From a virus (Duplodnaviria; Heunggongvirae; Uroviricota; Caudoviricetes), in IMG/VR virus record IMGVR_UViG_2645727901_000008: a DNA stretch of 64,000 nt; one strand, written 5' to 3'. Positions 38,510 through 64,000 of the stretch are shown one piece after another (position 1 is the first letter of the stretch; each line of letters opens with the position of its first letter). The notes below the pieces were generated by a model. The model was not told the DNA's origin. It ran no database searches and saw only the letters and a list, made by a program, of their open reading frames with translations. The position numbers and the translations under genes were made by a program.

Positions 38510-38688
38510 AGCCTCCTTTGACTAAGTTAAGGAGCTACCGCGTGAGGTTCCAATCTCAATGGCGGTAGCACTGACTGGGTTGGAACTACCGGCGTCAAAG
38601 GGAACCGGCCTGCCTTTCGGCAGCCCAGCCAGCACTACCATTGATCTCTGAGCTAAACGCTACGTATGGCTGTGCGATGGCATGACAC
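38510..38688 (-). ncRNA. Candidate structured leader / antisense-RNA region (c4-like position)
   Basis: Non-coding stretch with several stems (gctaccgc...gcggtagc; ggaaccggcctgcctttcggcagcc) between a terminator and the icd/ant-like genes; speculative. Confidence 0.25.
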
Positions 38689-38710
38689 AAAAAAAGACGC
38701 TTTCGGCGTC
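38689..38710 (-). terminator. Rho-independent terminator on the minus strand (gacgccgaaagcgtc + U7)
   Basis: Hairpin followed by T7 on the minus strand, downstream of ref. Confidence 0.65.
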
Positions 38711-38815
38711 TGTGTCGCCTTTGACATTATCCGGGGTTCCAATCCCGGCACCCGTTTTTCTAAGGTGCCGTAGAAATATACCCCACGATAATGCCAGGGC
38801 GCAACAGTCAGTATT

Positions 38816-44658: not shown

Positions 44659-45103
44659 CTATCAAGAACTGCGCGAGGCGGCGGAACAGGCAACGCAAGA
44701 TGAATGGGTAGCATATATTTTGCCGGGTCATAACGGCATTTATCCTGCGCGCACGTCTGAAGGTAGGCATTGCGGATACTTTATTGACTGGCCTGGCATT
44801 GATGGACAAAGGAATGCTGGTGCTAATGCCCGTTATATCGCGGCTATCCCACCAAAAGTTGCACTGTCACTCCTAGGCGAAATTAAGCGCCTGGAGGACA
44901 AAAATATTGATGCCATGTGCCAAATTGCAGAGCTGGAGAGCAATCGCGCGGCGCTGGCGGCGGAGCATGGTATTCAGATTGCAATAAATGAACTGCTTGC
45001 TCTGGCCCCGCGTCTGGATAAACGAGCGATGGATGCACTCTCTGTGGCTGTGGAGCACCTGTGTAAACTGATTAAGAAGGAGGCAGTCAGTGAGCAAAAT
45101 TAA
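44645..45103 (+). CDS. Ead/Ea22-like protein (paralog 1)
   Basis: N-terminus MSKINYQELREAAEQATQDEW characteristic of prophage Ead/Ea22-like family. Confidence 0.6.
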   Translation: MSKINYQELREAAEQATQDEWVAYILPGHNGIYPARTSEGRHCGYFIDWPGIDGQRNAGANARYIAAIPPKVALSLLGEIKRLEDKNIDAMCQIAELESNRAALAAEHGIQIAINELLALAPRLDKRAMDALSVAVEHLCKLIKKEAVSEQN

Positions 45104-60086: not shown

Positions 60087-60479
60087 CTACCAGCGAGACA
60101 AACGAACAACATGTTTCACTTTTGCGATCCACTTTCCGCGATAACTATTGATTACGGCCTGTGCCAGCTTCAAATTGGCTTCAAAATCAGCCTTACTACC
60201 ATCAGACTCCACCAGCATTCCTCCATCTATTTCTGGTAAACATAGATAATCCTGCTCAACCTGCAGCGGCATTGATGGCTCTCTGAATGGCGTTACTTGC
60301 TCTGCTTTCCAGCGAAATCTAACCCTCATCCCCCTGGTGGTCATTACTAGATAGCCTGTTATAGTGCTTTTATGGCCCACATCAGTACGCGTGGCATTGC
60401 ATGACACGATCTTACAGTTAGCGATAGACCACTCCATATTGGTGGCCTGTTGAGTGCTTAATTTGGTAGTCCCGTACAT
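60087..60479 (-). CDS. Hypothetical protein
   Basis: 130-aa ORF. Confidence 0.5.
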   Translation of the reverse strand: MYGTTKLSTQQATNMEWSIANCKIVSCNATRTDVGHKSTITGYLVMTTRGMRVRFRWKAEQVTPFREPSMPLQVEQDYLCLPEIDGGMLVESDGSKADFEANLKLAQAVINSYRGKWIAKVKHVVRLSRW

Positions 60480-61054
60480 CAGAAAGCCTCCCAGTCAGTC
60501 GCGATAATATCCACACCAGTTGCAAACCAGTCTGTCTGCGCCTGTAAATCACCATTCATCATTACCAGGCGAGGCATCACCATCACATCGCACCCTTCCA
60601 CAATATCGAATGCCTCTTCCGGCAAGAATTCGAAGAGCTTTTCTTTGCTGCCAATGCTGCCACGGAACATCGATATATAGCTCCCTTTAGGCCATGATGT
60701 CCGCCGGGCATCAAGCCCTTTCATCATCCAGTAAAAAGCCGAGGAAAAAGGGATATTCTTTTTGCCAATGATTACATTATTCGCTTCTGTGTACTTCAGG
60801 AACTTAACTAACCTTACCATTGACTCGGATAACGCAACGTATGGCTCATGATTGATTGCTGACACGCTTACACCGTGCAATCCAACGCTTACCACTGTCA
60901 TATCGCCGCTTTGTGCGGTTTCGATATTGACGCCTTTGCGAACTAATGAGGCGTAAAGTTCCTCTCGCTTTTGGGTCCAGCGTTCACGCTTCCCTATGAA
61001 GTCACTCAAAATGAGATCTTCTTCTGCATATGCGTTATCGTTCGCCATTAACAT
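60479..61054 (-). CDS. Protein with C-terminal DUF2829-like domain (second copy)
   Basis: FSSAFYWMMKGLDARRTSWPKGSYISM...VDIIATDWEAF parallels the DUF2829-like region of 52167..52844. Confidence 0.45.
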   Translation of the reverse strand: MLMANDNAYAEEDLILSDFIGKRERWTQKREELYASLVRKGVNIETAQSGDMTVVSVGLHGVSVSAINHEPYVALSESMVRLVKFLKYTEANNVIIGKKNIPFSSAFYWMMKGLDARRTSWPKGSYISMFRGSIGSKEKLFEFLPEEAFDIVEGCDVMVMPRLVMMNGDLQAQTDWFATGVDIIATDWEAF

Positions 61055-61508
61055 AACGTCTCCTTTTTTACACGCGCGACTATCCCCCGGAAGTACCGGT
61101 AGTGATGTCGTAACTTCGTATTAATTAAGGGGTACAGCCTGAGCGGCTATATGATGAATTGAAAGGAGTTGTGGCGGTGGTGCCTCCACCTGCCAGGTTA
61201 GCCACTCCCGGCGACGTCACTTATCAGAACGTAGTGAATGAAAATGGCTTCGTCACGAGCGCATAGCCGCAATTACCACAACGGAAACGGCGCTCACGCT
61301 AATTAAACGCCTTTTCCTGTTGTGCGCCGTACTCTTCCGGCTGTCACACCGAATCGCCAGGATGGTGAGTCCTCGGTCCGACGATATGAACGGGGCTTGC
61401 ACATTCCGGCTACCTGGTTTGTTGCCTGAGCTAGGGGAAAAGGTAACCCCTTTAACGTCACCAGACCGCTAACGACGCATGTGCCATACGCCGTGTTACA
61501 ACCAAATA

Positions 61509-61584
61509 TGGTGGCCCCTACCGGACTTGAACCGGTGACCGTGCGATTATGAGTCGCCAGCTCTAACCACTGAGCTAAAGGGCC
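61509..61584 (-). tRNA. tRNA with CAU anticodon (tRNA-Ile2-like; Met not excluded)
   Basis: Minus-strand GGCCCTTTAGCTCAGTGGTTAGAGC...CTCATAA...GGTTCAAGTCC...GGGGCCACCA; close to E. coli ileX as recalled; CCA encoded. Confidence 0.85.
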
Positions 61585-61594
61585 AATTAGTGTT

Positions 61595-61705
61595 TTATTT
61601 TCGACGCCTGAGATTCTTCGCGACTTGTTCTACGCCGTATACGATCACAAGTAGAAACAGCAAAAACCATCCAGGGTTCTTATCGATATACGTCCAAAAA
61701 TCCAT
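61595..61705 (-). CDS. Possible 36-aa membrane peptide
   Basis: MDFWTYIDKNPGWFLLFLLVIVYGVEQVAKNLRRRK; start overlaps upstream stop (TGATG). Confidence 0.3.
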   Translation of the reverse strand: MDFWTYIDKNPGWFLLFLLVIVYGVEQVAKNLRRRK

Positions 61706-61869
61706 CATGAGTTCCTGAACGCACCTTCAATAATCGGCAATAGCAATACCACAGCTACTGAAACTAATGCCCCATCAGCCAACACCGACATCACTTTGCT
61801 GGTGAAATCCACCAGTACGGACAAAACGAGAAAGCCAATGGCGCCCGCAATACGCGCCTTGCCAATCAT
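61705..61869 (-). CDS. Possible 54-aa membrane peptide
   Basis: MIGKARIAGAIGFLVLSVLVDF...; ATG overlaps the TerB-like stop (TAATG). Confidence 0.35.
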   Translation of the reverse strand: MIGKARIAGAIGFLVLSVLVDFTSKVMSVLADGALVSVAVVLLLPIIEGAFRNS

Positions 61870-62303
61870 TACAGATAATCTTCCACACGAAGGCCAAGAC
61901 GGCGACCAACCTCTTCCAGAACCTTATGCTCCGCAGGTTCGATTTCACCATCTGCTTCAGCGATCGTGAGCATGTTCACGAAGACTTCTTCCGCTTCTTT
62001 GGGATCGTTTTTGATATCTTCAATTTCGCGGAGGATATTCATGCGACCAACACGGAAACCAGCTTCCAGTTGCTCAGTAAAACGGGTGATTGTTGCGGTA
62101 ATTTCGTTGCCAAAATGACTTAAGCGAGGATTAGAGCGGACAAGCTGATCAAGTTTCGCTGTTTCTTCCTTTTCGATTTCACCATCTGCGGCAGACACCA
62201 GCAAACAGCCACCGATGATGGCCTCCATCAGATCGCGATTCTCAACCCTTTTCAGCTCTACTTTTGCTGAAGCGACTTTCTTACCGAAAAATTTACCGAA
62301 CAT
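61869..62303 (-). CDS. TerB-like (tellurite-resistance family) protein
   Basis: Repeated ADGEIE-type motifs (SAADGEIEKEE; AEADGEIEPAE); likely start MFGKFFGKK at 62303. Confidence 0.6.
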   Translation of the reverse strand: MFGKFFGKKVASAKVELKRVENRDLMEAIIGGCLLVSAADGEIEKEETAKLDQLVRSNPRLSHFGNEITATITRFTEQLEAGFRVGRMNILREIEDIKNDPKEAEEVFVNMLTIAEADGEIEPAEHKVLEEVGRRLGLRVEDYL

Positions 62304-62570
62304 TGGTTTTCCCTCAATAAACATGACGTATTTATTAGGTTGCGGTGCCTGGTGCCTCCAGGTGACGTTAACCAGTTAACAATTAACGCCGGGATTTTTG
62401 TCTTCACAATTAAGGAGGATTGTTTTAACTGTTCCGCGTGCGCTTAGCCGCATTCACCGCAATGGTAAGAGCACTTGGCTGGCTGGGCGGCGATGACGCC
62501 TGTACGCATTTGGTGAACCGGTTCTGCTTCCGGCATTCGCTTAATTAGCCAAATACTCTTAACGTTGCAC

Positions 62571-62657
62571 TGGCGGAGAGTAATGGAATCGAACCATCAT
62601 CGCTTGCGCAATGGGACGGTTTTCAAGACCGCTTGAGCACCATGCTCCCTACTCTCC
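62571..62657 (-). tRNA. Class-II tRNA-like gene, anticodon UGA (tRNA-Ser-like), atypical D-arm
   Basis: 7-bp acceptor stem (GGAGAGT/ACTCTCC) + G + CCA, anticodon arm GGTCTTGAAAACCG as in E. coli tRNA-Ser(UGA), T-loop TTCGATT, long variable region. Confidence 0.5.
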
Positions 62658-62793
62658 CGTTATTGTGGCGACCGGTGCTGATCTCCGGCTTGCGGTTATT
62701 TCAGACTCTCACGGGCGTTTAATTGCCCCGCCGAACAGCTCTTTTCCGCAATAGCTGCAATGTCTTTCGCGCATCAGCCTGCGCATTCACCAC

Positions 62794-62881
62794 AATGTTG
62801 AGAACACTGGTTGTCACGCTGCAACGCAACATTTATTCGTAGATTGGGATATGACCCCGTTACGCCAGTGTTCTCAACGTT
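62794..62881. repeat. Inverted repeat (aatgttgagaacactgg ... ccagtgttctcaacgtt), 16/17 match, about 55-bp spacer
   Basis: Read directly from sequence. Confidence 0.5.
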
Positions 62882-63030
62882 GTAGTGCCGGTTACGGTTC
62901 CGGCCAGGCCTCTTCCTCAACGGGTTGTTCTCCATACGGACTACCGTTTATTGGTCGTTCCTGCGGTTTATGTTGTGAAGCCAGATGCTTATCTTCTGGT
63001 TGCTTCAAAGAGCTGCACTTCATCACAACG

Positions 63031-63100
63031 GTAAGGGTACTTCGTAGGGATTCGAACCCTCTGCCAAGCACGGCGATCTCCGACGTCGCAAAATACCCTT
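63031..63100 (-). ncRNA. Truncated tRNA-like element flanked by a 10-bp inverted repeat
   Basis: Canonical T-arm (GGGTTCGAATCCC) and acceptor-like stem, D-arm-like hairpin, no anticodon arm of normal length; ggtaagggta/tacccttacc terminal inverted repeat. Confidence 0.3.
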
Positions 63101-63111
63101 ACCTGTTGCGT

Positions 63112-63187
63112 TGGTGCCGATTAACGGGATCGAACCGCTGACCATTCGCTTACAAAGCGACTGCTCTACCAACTGAGCTAAACCGGC
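63112..63187 (-). tRNA. tRNA-Thr (anticodon UGU)
   Basis: Minus-strand GCCGGTT-TA-GCTCAGTTGGTAGAGC-...TTTGTAA...GGTTCGATCC...AATCGGC-A-CCA cloverleaf. Confidence 0.85.
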
Positions 63188-63191
63188 AATT

Positions 63192-63278
63192 TGGTGGGGA
63201 GTGATGGAGTCGAACCACCCGAGTCGCAATGACAGTAGATTTACAGTCTACCCCGCTACCCCTACGGACTAACTCCCC
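63192..63278 (-). tRNA. tRNA-Tyr-like (anticodon GUA, class II)
   Basis: Acceptor GGGGAGT/ACTCCCC + A + CCA; anticodon arm TAGACTGTAAATCTACTGTCAT nearly identical to E. coli tRNA-Tyr; D-arm irregular. Confidence 0.6.
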
Positions 63279-63283
63279 TAAAG

Positions 63284-63360
63284 TGGCGATGGTGGGTGGA
63301 TTCGAACCACCGACCGACAGCTTAGAAGGCTGCTGCTCTATCCTACTGAGCTACACCATC
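63284..63360 (-). tRNA. tRNA-Arg (anticodon UCU)
   Basis: GATGGTG-TA-GCTC-AGTAGGATA-GAGC-A-GCAGC-CTTCTAA-GCTGT-CGGTC-GGTGG-TTCGAAT-CCACC-CACCATC-G-CCA. Confidence 0.85.
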
Positions 63361-63863
63361 ACTTGCCGGGTACGTCTCCGGCGAGGGCTTCCACCTCCGT
63401 ATGCTTTTCGGCGCACCGCGCCCTGGCTGCAATTCAGTAACAGGGGATGCATAACCCTGGCTTCCAGCGTGATTAGCGCCTTCAGCATGACGGGATATAC
63501 CCGTAACCAACAAACTTTCCCATATACCATCAAACAATGGCTGTTACGCGGGAGGGACGTAACAGGTAAGGGCGCTGACCAGAAAGACCTGACCCTTCTC
63601 ATTCATCTGGTTAATCACACCAGCGCCCTTGCCTGTTATGTCTCCCCGTTCCCTAATACACAGACGGGGACACTCTGCGGTCGATTTTTTGACGGGGGAC
63701 GACTCATACCCCGTGGCGTCTGGCTTCTTAGGCCGCTACCATCATCAGATCATCGTTTGCATTTACTTTAATGGTCGGTTTCTAAACCGCCGCAAAGCCG
63801 CTAACCATGACGAAAACCCTAAAAAAGCCCACCCGAAGATGGGCAAATACGCTACATCTCACA

Positions 63864-63942
63864 CAAGAAAGAAGCCGACTGCCTGAGCTGGATTCACTTT
63901 CAAATGCCCGCAGAAAGGGAACACAAGTCGGCTTCTTTCTTG
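63864..63942. repeat. Perfect 17-bp inverted repeat (caagaaagaagccgact ... agtcggcttctttcttg) enclosing 45 bp
   Basis: Read directly from sequence; non-coding region near window end. Confidence 0.5.
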
Positions 63943-64000
63943 ATGCGGCACTCTCTCCGCCCGTCACCGTTCTGTCTCGGTTGTCGCGTTTGCCACGCCA

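Follow-up and report, generated by a model that had tools for sequence, protein, structure and literature searches.

The DNA analysed here is a 64,000-nucleotide (nt) stretch from a virus of the Caudoviricetes (IMG/VR record IMGVR_UViG_2645727901_000008), called the window throughout. Its right end carries a tRNA cluster (61509-63360) that was originally predicted to hold four canonical tRNAs and two atypical elements: a serine tRNA-like gene and a truncated tRNA-like element, here named H1. Judged by sequence, the window is a D6/P1-type phage-plasmid, because it carries a C4 antisense RNA, its last 2.8 kilobases (kb) share 95% identity with phage D6 and 89-91% with P7 and P1, and its positions 61400-63500 match E. 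coli GZ2408P plasmid P2 (a RefSeq record) at 100%. The C4 RNA (38558-38645, minus strand, 77.1 bits in Rfam) is adjoined by an isrK-family RNA (38690-38768, minus strand, 62.7 bits), and the two mark the immI-type immunity region of the phage-plasmid. The cluster contains the following genes and elements, where ORF stands for open reading frame.

63284-63360, minus strand: tRNA-Arg(UCU), canonical (ARAGORN; Rfam 72.1 bits; RefSeq tRNA-Arg)
63192-63278, minus strand: tRNA-Tyr(GUA), class II, canonical (ARAGORN; Rfam 41.9 bits; RefSeq)
63112-63187, minus strand: tRNA-Thr(UGU), canonical (ARAGORN; Rfam 65.2 bits; RefSeq)
63021-63111, minus strand: H1, the 'truncated tRNA-like element' (inverted repeat; fold z; covariation; own covariance model, R1)
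62571-62657, minus strand: tRNA-Ser(UGA), assigned to the (8/4) type (ARAGORN; RefSeq tRNA-Ser; covariation in 10 phage relatives)
61869-62324, minus strand: tciA, TerB family (ORF; RefSeq, P1 and D6 annotation)
61705-61869, minus strand: tciB, DUF3927 (ORF; RefSeq, P1 and D6 annotation)
61509-61584, minus strand: tRNA with anticodon CAU, read here as tRNA-Ile2 (ARAGORN calls Met/CAU; Rfam 64.7 bits; RefSeq tRNA-Ile)

The tRNA array and its operon

ARAGORN reported five minus-strand tRNA genes exactly where the original prediction had placed them, and the four described there as canonical (CAU, UGU-Thr, GUA-Tyr and UCU-Arg) all form a 7/5 cloverleaf and score above the gathering threshold of the Rfam tRNA family RF00005 (29 bits). 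The NCBI annotation pipeline uses tRNAscan-SE, and RefSeq annotation served as our proxy for that program; the identical RefSeq record carries tRNA-Ile, tRNA-Ser, tRNA-Thr, tRNA-Tyr and tRNA-Arg at these places. One identity had to be refined. From its sequence, the CAU gene is an Ile2 tRNA and not a Met tRNA, because it is 100% identical to P1 trnI, which the P1 authors annotated as tRNA-Ile2 and which is 89% identical to ileX; the NCBI name agrees. It presumably reads AUA after lysidine modification, as is known for tRNAs of the ileX type. As such, the tRNA cluster is an ordinary one that has been annotated before.

All tRNA genes and H1 lie on the minus strand, in a region that corresponds by homology to the P1 ban operon leader. 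The order in P1 is C1-controlled Pban, a dicF-like region, trnA(Asn), trnT(Thr), tciA-tciB-tciC, trnI, and ban. The window keeps the position, order, and strand of the P1/P7 cluster, in which trnA-Asn, trnT-Thr, and trnI-Ile2 surround tciA/tciB/tciC: tRNA genes come first, then the protein genes tciA and tciB inside the array (61705-62324), and then trnI, on one strand. Compared with P1, trnI is identical, trnT is 91% identical, and H1 has one mismatch. As stated in the original prediction, the tRNA set differs from the Asn/Thr/Ile(CAU) set that P1 carries at the homologous place. Arg(UCU) stands in for Asn on the same scaffold, Tyr is inserted, an (8/4) tRNA-Ser is present as in D6 and P7, and the genes downstream differ from ban. 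With P1 spacing, one would expect the C1 operator and Pban some 650-700 nt ahead of the first tRNA, past position 64000 and beyond the window end. Where P1 has its 'dicF-like region', the window has an inverted repeat of 17 nt without mismatch (63864-63880 / 63926-63942) and, on the minus strand at 63827-63844, a hairpin with a T run that resembles a terminator; Rfam gave no DicF match at 63827-63942. Just 3' of the array, a 191-amino-acid (aa) ORF (60479-61054, minus strand) encodes a Thoeris anti-defence Tad2-like domain (PF11195, E = 1.1e-9), and its product is named Tad2 family protein at NCBI. Since this ORF follows the array on the same strand, the anti-defence gene and the tRNA array share their transcription direction.

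In about 100 related viral contigs, the array proved to be combinatorial, being composed of Asn or Arg, an optional Tyr, Thr, H1, an optional Ser, and Ile. The version in the window, Arg-Tyr-Thr-H1-Ser-Ile, was found again in several contigs, and neighbouring tRNA slots have clearly been reshuffled by recombination. The slot of tRNA-Arg is held by tRNA-Asn(GUU) in P1 (3278-3353 of our contig L003) and in phage Ro157 (3867-3941 of L002). The window tRNA-Arg is 78-82% identical to these tRNA-Asn genes, versus 71% to rV5-like tRNA-Arg, and shares with the former the acceptor stem (GAUGGUG/CACCAUC), the D stem, and the T arm, but has another anticodon arm and, in the D loop, an A where Asn has a U. 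From this alignment, the pair looks like identity switching on one scaffold. In tRNA-Thr, the anticodon stem has been wholly replaced relative to P1 trnT (3200-3275 of L003) and is still paired (GUCGC/GCGAA-type versus CCUGC/GCAGG-type), with almost no other difference between the two genes. The tRNA-Tyr is 100% identical to that of phage Ro157c2YLVW and 93% identical to rV5-like tRNA-Tyr. In addition, rV5-like phages carry between tRNA-Ser and tRNA-Thr a 99-nt tRNA-like gene (1385-1483 of L004; 489-587 of L118) that is unannotated in their records; ARAGORN gives it as 'tRNA-???' with an anticodon of four bases (AUCC), and its score with the Rfam tRNA model is 35.5 bits.

Codon usage was compared between 57 long window ORFs, which were mechanically chosen and should be read with that caveat, and 47 annotated K-12 genes. 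AGA (6.2-fold), AGG (6.9-fold), AUA (5.1-fold), ACA (3.5-fold), and UCA (2.5-fold) were enriched in the window ORFs, and UAU/UAC were not (1.0-1.3-fold). Arg(UCU), Ile2(CAU), Thr(UGU), and Ser(UGA) match AGA/AGG, AUA, ACA, and UCA, codons that are thus 2.5-7 times commoner in the phage than in E. coli. Classical codon supplementation therefore fits four of the five tRNAs.

The (8/4) tRNA-Ser(UGA)

The gene at 62571-62657 had been described as a class-II tRNA-like gene with a Ser-type UGA anticodon and an irregular D-arm. The oddity of the D-arm is real: in the Rfam scan the gene fell below the gathering score of RF00005, and its best match was tRNA-Sec (RF01852; 43.5 bits, threshold 47, E = 1e-6). 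The wording 'tRNA-like' did not hold, as the structural comparison identifies the gene as a genuine member of the published (8/4) tRNA-Ser/allo-tRNA class, and it is annotated in D6 and in RefSeq plasmids. The RNA reads GGAGAGUA-GG-GAGCA-UGG-UGCUC-AA-GCGGU-CUUGAAA-ACCGU-CC-CAUUGC-GCAA-GCGAUG-AUGG-UUCGAUU-CCAU-UACUCUCC-G-CCA. It has an acceptor stem of 8 base pairs (bp), the eighth being A8-U, and a 4-bp T stem, giving a 12-bp acceptor branch. The D stem has 5 bp (GAGCA/UGCUC) with a 3-nt UGG loop, the anticodon stem has 5 bp, and the variable stem has 6 bp with a GCAA loop; the discriminator is G, and CCA is encoded. An extended acceptor stem, a compact D arm, and a long variable arm are also found in tRNA-Sec. 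However, a tRNA-Sec identity is ruled out by the score below threshold, by the anticodon (UGA, not UCA), and by the 12-bp (8/4) instead of 13-bp (8/5) branch.

Near-identical copies are found in D6, P7 (where the gene is unannotated), and phage Cyrano, and relatives with the same architecture occur in rV5-like coliphages, Klebsiella T5-like FZ41, Pseudomonas Pyxpy01, Acinetobacter 313, and Streptomyces Percastrophe. In a manual structural alignment of 10 phage relatives from five host genera, all 5 pairs of the D stem covary, the stem being inverted in FZ41, and the anticodon, variable, and acceptor stems covary likewise. The eighth acceptor pair (A8 with N65) is kept in 10 of 10, as A-U in nine and G-C in one. 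The nucleotide that would be N49 of a 7/5 fold instead closes the variable stem, with a closing pair that covaries from C-G to U-A, and a 49:65 pair is impossible in Percastrophe_b. Among the enterobacterial copies alone A8, G49, and U65 are invariant, so that the (8/4) call there rests on the variable-stem argument. The D loop, of 3 nt in the window, has 4-5 nt in the relatives. The anticodon is always a serine one (UGA, AGA, or GCU), and G73 and the encoded CCA are kept.

These results agree with a report of (8/4) tRNA-Ser in phages (Mukai et al., 2017; PMC5389517). The window gene shares with that group the 8-bp acceptor stem, the 4-bp T stem, the tRNA-Sec-like long D stem with a tiny loop, the long variable arm, G73, a serine anticodon, and a home in phage tRNA clusters. 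It differs in its 3-nt D loop instead of a tetraloop and in its anticodon stem of 5 bp, not 6. In addition, the phage examples of that paper come from marine metagenomes and alpha-proteobacterial phages. Seryl-tRNA synthetase (SerRS) depends on the long variable arm and G73/U73, and 8/4 tRNAs translate efficiently in E. coli, although some allo-tRNAs are inactive (Mukai et al., 2017; PMC5389517). The window tRNA-Ser is presumably charged by the host SerRS through its long variable arm and G73, and these identity elements together with the enrichment of UCA point to a use in translation. That the gene is instead a pseudogene, or a regulatory allo-tRNA-like RNA with no role in translation, seems very improbable. 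Such a reading could draw on its failure with the general tRNA model and at the tRNA-Sec threshold, on the inactive allo-tRNAs, and on the D6 copy, for which tRNAscan-SE called no amino acid and NCBI gives the label tRNA-OTHER, but it has to account for helices that all covary across ten phages and five host genera, for the constant serine anticodon, G73, and CCA, for the 2.5-fold enrichment of UCA, and for the efficient translation by 8/4 tRNAs in E. coli.

The D6 annotators wrote of their copy 'apparent UGA Serine anticodon but AA not called by tRNAscan-SE'. The D6-type gene (2871-2957 of L001; 1471-1557 of L120) has an A-to-C change that gives a C.U mismatch in the D stem, and it is this variant for which tRNAscan-SE made no call in D6 and which NCBI labels 'tRNA-OTHER'. 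Taken together, the cluster and its serine tRNA are real and essentially known, as D6 is annotated and the class is published.

H1, a conserved hairpin with a tRNA-like head

The truncated element had been placed at 63031-63100, inside a 10-bp inverted repeat. It is real and has no anticodon arm, but it is larger, spanning 63021-63111 with a helix of about 21 bp. A repeat search gave inverted-repeat arms of 13 nt (63030-63042 and 63091-63103). With G-U pairs, these become a 15-bp helix with a 6-bp outer extension, 21 bp in total with one bulged A (arms 63089-63110 and 63024-63044), and the fold z against shuffles is -3.1 to -3.5. The head on this helix starts with a D-arm-like hairpin (63074-63088; GCGA/CGUCGGAGA/UCGC), in which 3-4 bp, (G)CGA/UCG(C), enclose a loop CGUCGGAGA that contains GG. 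In the place of the anticodon arm is a stub (63064-63073) with a 2-bp CC/GG mini-stem and a hypervariable loop of 5-7 nt. After a 3-nt linker comes a T-arm-like hairpin (63046-63060; AGGG-UUCGAAU-CCCU, within the T-arm-like segment GGGTTCGAATCCC), which joins the helix through a G.A that is a G-C pair in variant L109. The 4-bp T stem and the G.A are thus continuous with the 21-bp helix. H1 lies between tRNA-Thr and the downstream RNAs, and in P1-type arrays it starts 2-3 nt past the CCA of tRNA-Thr.

A rejection of the atypical elements by tRNA finders and covariance models had been named as the outcome that would speak against them, and the result was split: the tRNA finders accepted the Ser gene, and no model accepted H1. 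A permissive Rfam scan of 63005-63115 gave no family for H1, the best matches being mascRNA (14 bits) and a tmRNA T-arm fragment (6 bits), and the RefSeq record with 100% identity has nothing annotated there. Several known classes were considered and rejected. For a C4-like antisense RNA, there was no C4-clan (RF01695) match within 61000-64000 at E up to 10. YrlA topology differs from that of H1, and a Y-RNA/YrlA-like or tmRNA-like domain was represented only by the T-arm fragment in the permissive scan. An attP or integration remnant was rejected because the replicons are plasmids and because H1 is not built as the 3' half of a tRNA, given its long helix and D-like arm.

When viral contigs were scanned with an exact pattern, H1 was found in 100 stretches as 23 distinct versions, about ten of them not P1-like; these carriers include Enterobacter phage BUCT554 and lambdoid prophages. 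P1 and D6 carry H1 with one mismatch. Among 5,426 complete E. coli genomes, 464 (about 9%) contain it at 95% identity or more, almost always on a plasmid and never annotated. In lambdoid prophages, H1 lies in the late leader between the antiterminator gene Q (PF06530) and the holin/lysozyme genes (PF00959), directly 3' of an intrinsic terminator in 4 of 7, and is followed by a small RNA (sRNA) of STnc100 type. Its orientation is always that of the flanking transcription unit.

In a 12-sequence alignment of P1-type elements, BUCT554, and lambdoid prophages, the head was invariant apart from the stub loop, while 11 of the 21 helix pairs had changed on both sides. Pairing was kept in 94% of cells, none of 500 shuffles did as well, and none of the slid controls came close. 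The prophage version L087 has a wholly different stem sequence under the same head. The strand in the tRNA sense folds better in 11 of 12 versions, owing to G-U pairs, which argues for an RNA-level element transcribed with the tRNAs. Conservation through an ORF on the opposite strand was rejected. In P1, the ORF plp (putative lipoprotein; 2852-3229 of L003) runs antisense over H1 and into tRNA-Thr, and its window counterpart (62851-63141, plus strand, 96 aa) is rich in Cys, Ser, and Arg. No coding sequence is annotated there by NCBI in the identical record, the ORF overlaps tRNA-Thr in antisense, and H1 is also found at places without such an ORF. The annotation of plp seems doubtful. The 3' arms of lambdoid H1-type hairpins (L007, L012, L061, and L009) read UGCUCUUUCC, which we take to resemble the boxA consensus UGCUCUUUAACAA. 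A boxA/nut-like reading of the H1 3' arm (UGCUCUUU) is not general, as the motif is not kept in P1-type or L087 stems.

H1 is not the only long hairpin of the leader, which is punctuated by four others with fold z of -3.5 to -6.1. Three of them, and a further structured RNA, are as follows.

63551-63647, minus strand: upstream long hairpin with 27-nt arms (z -5.25; R1 21-23 bits, E about 1e-3, on both strands)
62788-62887, minus strand: H2, a long hairpin with 23-nt arms between H1 and tRNA-Ser (z -6.13)
62455-62570, minus strand: H3, a long hairpin directly 3' of tRNA-Ser (z -4.08; R1 17 bits, E = 0.04)
62341-62461, minus strand: STnc100/PasD-like structured RNA immediately 5' of tciA (RF02076 in Rfam: 38.9 bits, threshold 47, E = 2.9e-6)

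The fourth is a further H1-type hairpin 3' of tRNA-Ile2 (61262-61345, minus strand; CACAACAGGAAA...UUUCCGUUGUGGUAAUUGCGG, z -3.5); DNA at about 61380-61500 resembles that upstream of H1 in BUCT554, judged by eye only. The upstream hairpin has the same AACAGG(Y)AAGGG base as H1. The interior of H3 is also kept after tRNA-Ser of rV5-like phages, there with a different stem. R1, the covariance model that we built from the H1 alignment, scores the window H1 at 107.9 bits. At 32-36 bits it also finds hairpins in lambda (just after tR'), P7, Ro157, and Sasha that share the basal helix of H1 but bear other heads; it had no match in a 49-kb K-12 chromosome control. The lambda hairpin right after tR' (921-1000 of L009, lambda about 44786-44865) scores 35.5 bits, has a different head, and is unannotated. 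The 65-nt block next to it (lambda 44866-44930; 1001-1065 of L009), likewise unannotated, is 96.9% identical to the H3 interior. Rfam places no family on the lambda, BUCT554, mEp460, and Sasha loci. Since the same basal helix stands under other heads, H1 would be one member of a wider family in which a scaffold helix bears exchangeable heads.

The hairpins alternate with STnc100-like sequences. The RNA at 62341-62461 covers positions 31-147 of the 206 in the RF02076 model; by this model score it resembles STnc100 and, being below threshold, is not assignable as a member. A repeated pattern, GGTGAATGCG...CCGG-loop-CCGG...CACAAC, can be read in the sequence, with two degenerate STnc100-like copies following H1 and H2. 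In this way three tandem units, each with a long hairpin and then GGUGAAUGCG...CCGG-loop-CCGG...CACAAC, are seen on the minus strand (62660-62810, 62341-62461, and about 62960-63030). The middle unit is 95-99% identical to non-coding DNA of lambdoid phages (mEp460 and Stx2 phages). In lambdoid late leaders, as in the window, H1-type hairpins are followed by STnc100-like units, and in L087 one of these units has the consensus motifs of the Rfam family. H1 is a separate element upstream of STnc100, and a recent preprint on STnc100/PasD (Zhu, Shabalina and Storz, 2026) covers neither H1 nor P1. Our literature search on tRNA-like elements in lambdoid late regions found nothing relevant. H1 is thus apparently an undescribed, conserved tRNA-like RNA motif of temperate enterobacterial phages.

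A proposed reading of the leader as a punctuated tRNA-sRNA-mRNA transcript

We read this locus as a leader with five working tRNAs, one of them an (8/4) tRNA-Ser, and with H1 as a functional structured RNA, most likely a cis-acting processing or punctuation signal; our rough probability for this reading is 0.55. From its pattern of sequence change, H1 is best read as a functional structured RNA and not as a dead gene. It probably marks an RNA-processing site for transcripts that combine tRNAs, sRNAs, and mRNA. The array would be in the leader of an early operon of the P1-ban type, transcribed from right to left, in which long hairpins space small RNAs, and a single precursor would carry the tRNAs, the STnc100-like sRNAs, and the tciA/tciB mRNA, separated by hairpins. 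The helix of about 21 bp would present the head, with its D-like and T-like hairpins, its acceptor/T stacking, and its 2-bp stub for an anticodon arm. H1 has the anatomy expected of an RNase P or RNase III element, namely, between RNA genes, either a T arm that stacks on an acceptor-like helix or at least about 20 bp of duplex. RNase P recognises the T arm/acceptor half of tRNA, needs no anticodon arm, and matures P1 C4 RNA. Two routes are conceivable: the duplex of about 21 bp may serve as an RNase III-type substrate, or the tRNA-like head may recruit tRNA-processing enzymes, for example RNase P, through the stacked T arm and acceptor-like helix. Cleavage at H1 would release tRNA-Thr at its 3' end and fix the 5' terminus of the sRNA or mRNA that follows. 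More speculatively, GUUGUG in the H1 3' arm could pair either with the 5' arm or with the downstream CACAAC that closes the STnc100-like unit, and cleavage could trigger refolding.

Comparable phage RNAs are known. In P1, P7, and P4 the C4/CI antisense RNAs, and in the T4 tRNA cluster the stable RNAs of species 1 and 2, are small RNAs matured by RNase P via tRNA-like ends. By analogy, H1 may be likened to them in being phage-encoded and co-transcribed and in having 5'/3' terminal helices, but its D-like and T-like hairpins are absent from C4. An anatomical parallel is mascRNA of MALAT1 (RF01684), which like H1 has a D stem abutting the acceptor stem, a stunted anticodon arm, and a normal T arm. 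In MALAT1-mascRNA, leader-trailer pairing extends the tRNA-like acceptor stem, an analogue of the H1 helix, and cleavage by RNase P/Z and CCA addition have been shown (PMC8457004). However, mascRNA is eukaryotic, and the match, although the best in Rfam, indicates no homology (14 bits, E = 1.2).

Several observations weigh against our interpretation. The processing role is proposed from anatomy and position. H1 has neither an 8/9 linker nor an encoded CCA, no covariance model accepts it as a tRNA, and in the window its cloverleaf (-34.7 kcal/mol) is less stable than the minimum free energy fold (-40.4 kcal/mol), in which the T hairpin is broken. Because the D-like and T-like hairpins show no variation, covariation lends them no support, and the near-identity inside the P1 lineage may partly reflect recent common ancestry. 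H1 is also taxonomically narrow, with one true and one chance match among 185,579 species genomes. P7, Ro157, and lambda bear other heads on the same helix, so that the tRNA-like head is not essential for the helix role. Finally, tRNA-Tyr lacks a codon-supplementation rationale.

A bolder version would make H1 the founder of a new phage RNA family, with a scaffold helix and exchangeable heads, one of which is an anticodon-less tRNA mimic hidden under plp in P1. This head would engage host tRNA machinery (RNase P, modification enzymes) or tRNA-directed defence proteins, and would thereby control maturation of the tRNA/sRNA array or blunt immunity. We regard this version as tentative and clearly less probable than a processing signal. 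A counter-defensive role is unlikely. H1 would then be a tRNA mimic that titrates host effectors of the tRNA elbow or acceptor end, and spare tRNAs (Tyr, altered anticodon stems) would replace those cleaved by anticodon nucleases; phage tRNAs that neutralise PARIS and retron-Eco7 have reportedly been described. The Tad2-like anti-Thoeris gene (60479-61054) in the same operon, the lack of a codon-usage rationale for tRNA-Tyr, the anticodon stem swapped in tRNA-Thr relative to the P1 copy, and a hypervariable loop confined to the place of the anticodon loop would all suit such a role. On the other hand, such nucleases usually target an anticodon stem-loop, which H1 lacks, its lambdoid form sits in a late leader and not with early anti-defence genes, and its tRNA-like head is replaceable by other heads.

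The original prediction had offered three options for the truncated element, namely pseudogene, recombination footprint, and regulatory RNA. The last came closest, although a structural or processing RNA is the more precise description, and the first two fit poorly, given an invariant core and a helix rebuilt by compensation in unrelated phages. A decayed tRNA gene or recombination scar, whose anticodon arm was deleted and which is carried passively with the cluster, would be expected next to real tRNAs, with D-like and T-like motifs but no anticodon arm, taken as a tRNA by no covariance model and flanked by slots that recombination has reshuffled, and all of this is seen. However, the core is also invariant where no tRNA is nearby (BUCT554, lambdoid late leaders), 11 helix pairs have changed on both sides, one lineage has swapped the whole stem, and 464 E. 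coli genomes retain H1 at 95% identity or more, whereas a neutral relic should decay in its core too. The marks of neutral decay, that is, spread substitutions, lineage restriction, and a tie to tRNA loci, were not found in H1, and we consider passive carriage improbable. Least probable among the roles for H1 is action as DNA, as a protein-binding or recombination site or a module boundary for cassette exchange with an incidental RNA fold: H1 and its relatives do lie exactly at junctions of shuffled modules and the head contains the palindromes CGACGTCG and TTCGAA, but compensatory changes keep pairing and not sequence, pairing is kept through G-U pairs that are mismatches on the other strand, and the orientation always follows the flanking transcription unit.

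Some practical consequences follow. D6, P7, and their relatives, which are widespread E. coli phage-plasmids, carry a serine tRNA of the (8/4) allo type that is under-scored by standard models; the P7 annotation, in which the Ser tRNA is missing, and the 'tRNA-OTHER' labels need correcting. This tRNA is relevant to annotation and to users of such tRNAs as orthogonal chassis. H1 is conserved and covarying and was never annotated, having gone unnoticed for decades in P1; it is also present in lambdoid late leaders, with a sister hairpin in lambda. Should H1 indeed serve as a processing signal or mimic a tRNA, it would reveal how mixed tRNA-sRNA-mRNA transcripts are matured in temperate phages, and its role would be directly testable in the best-studied phage systems.

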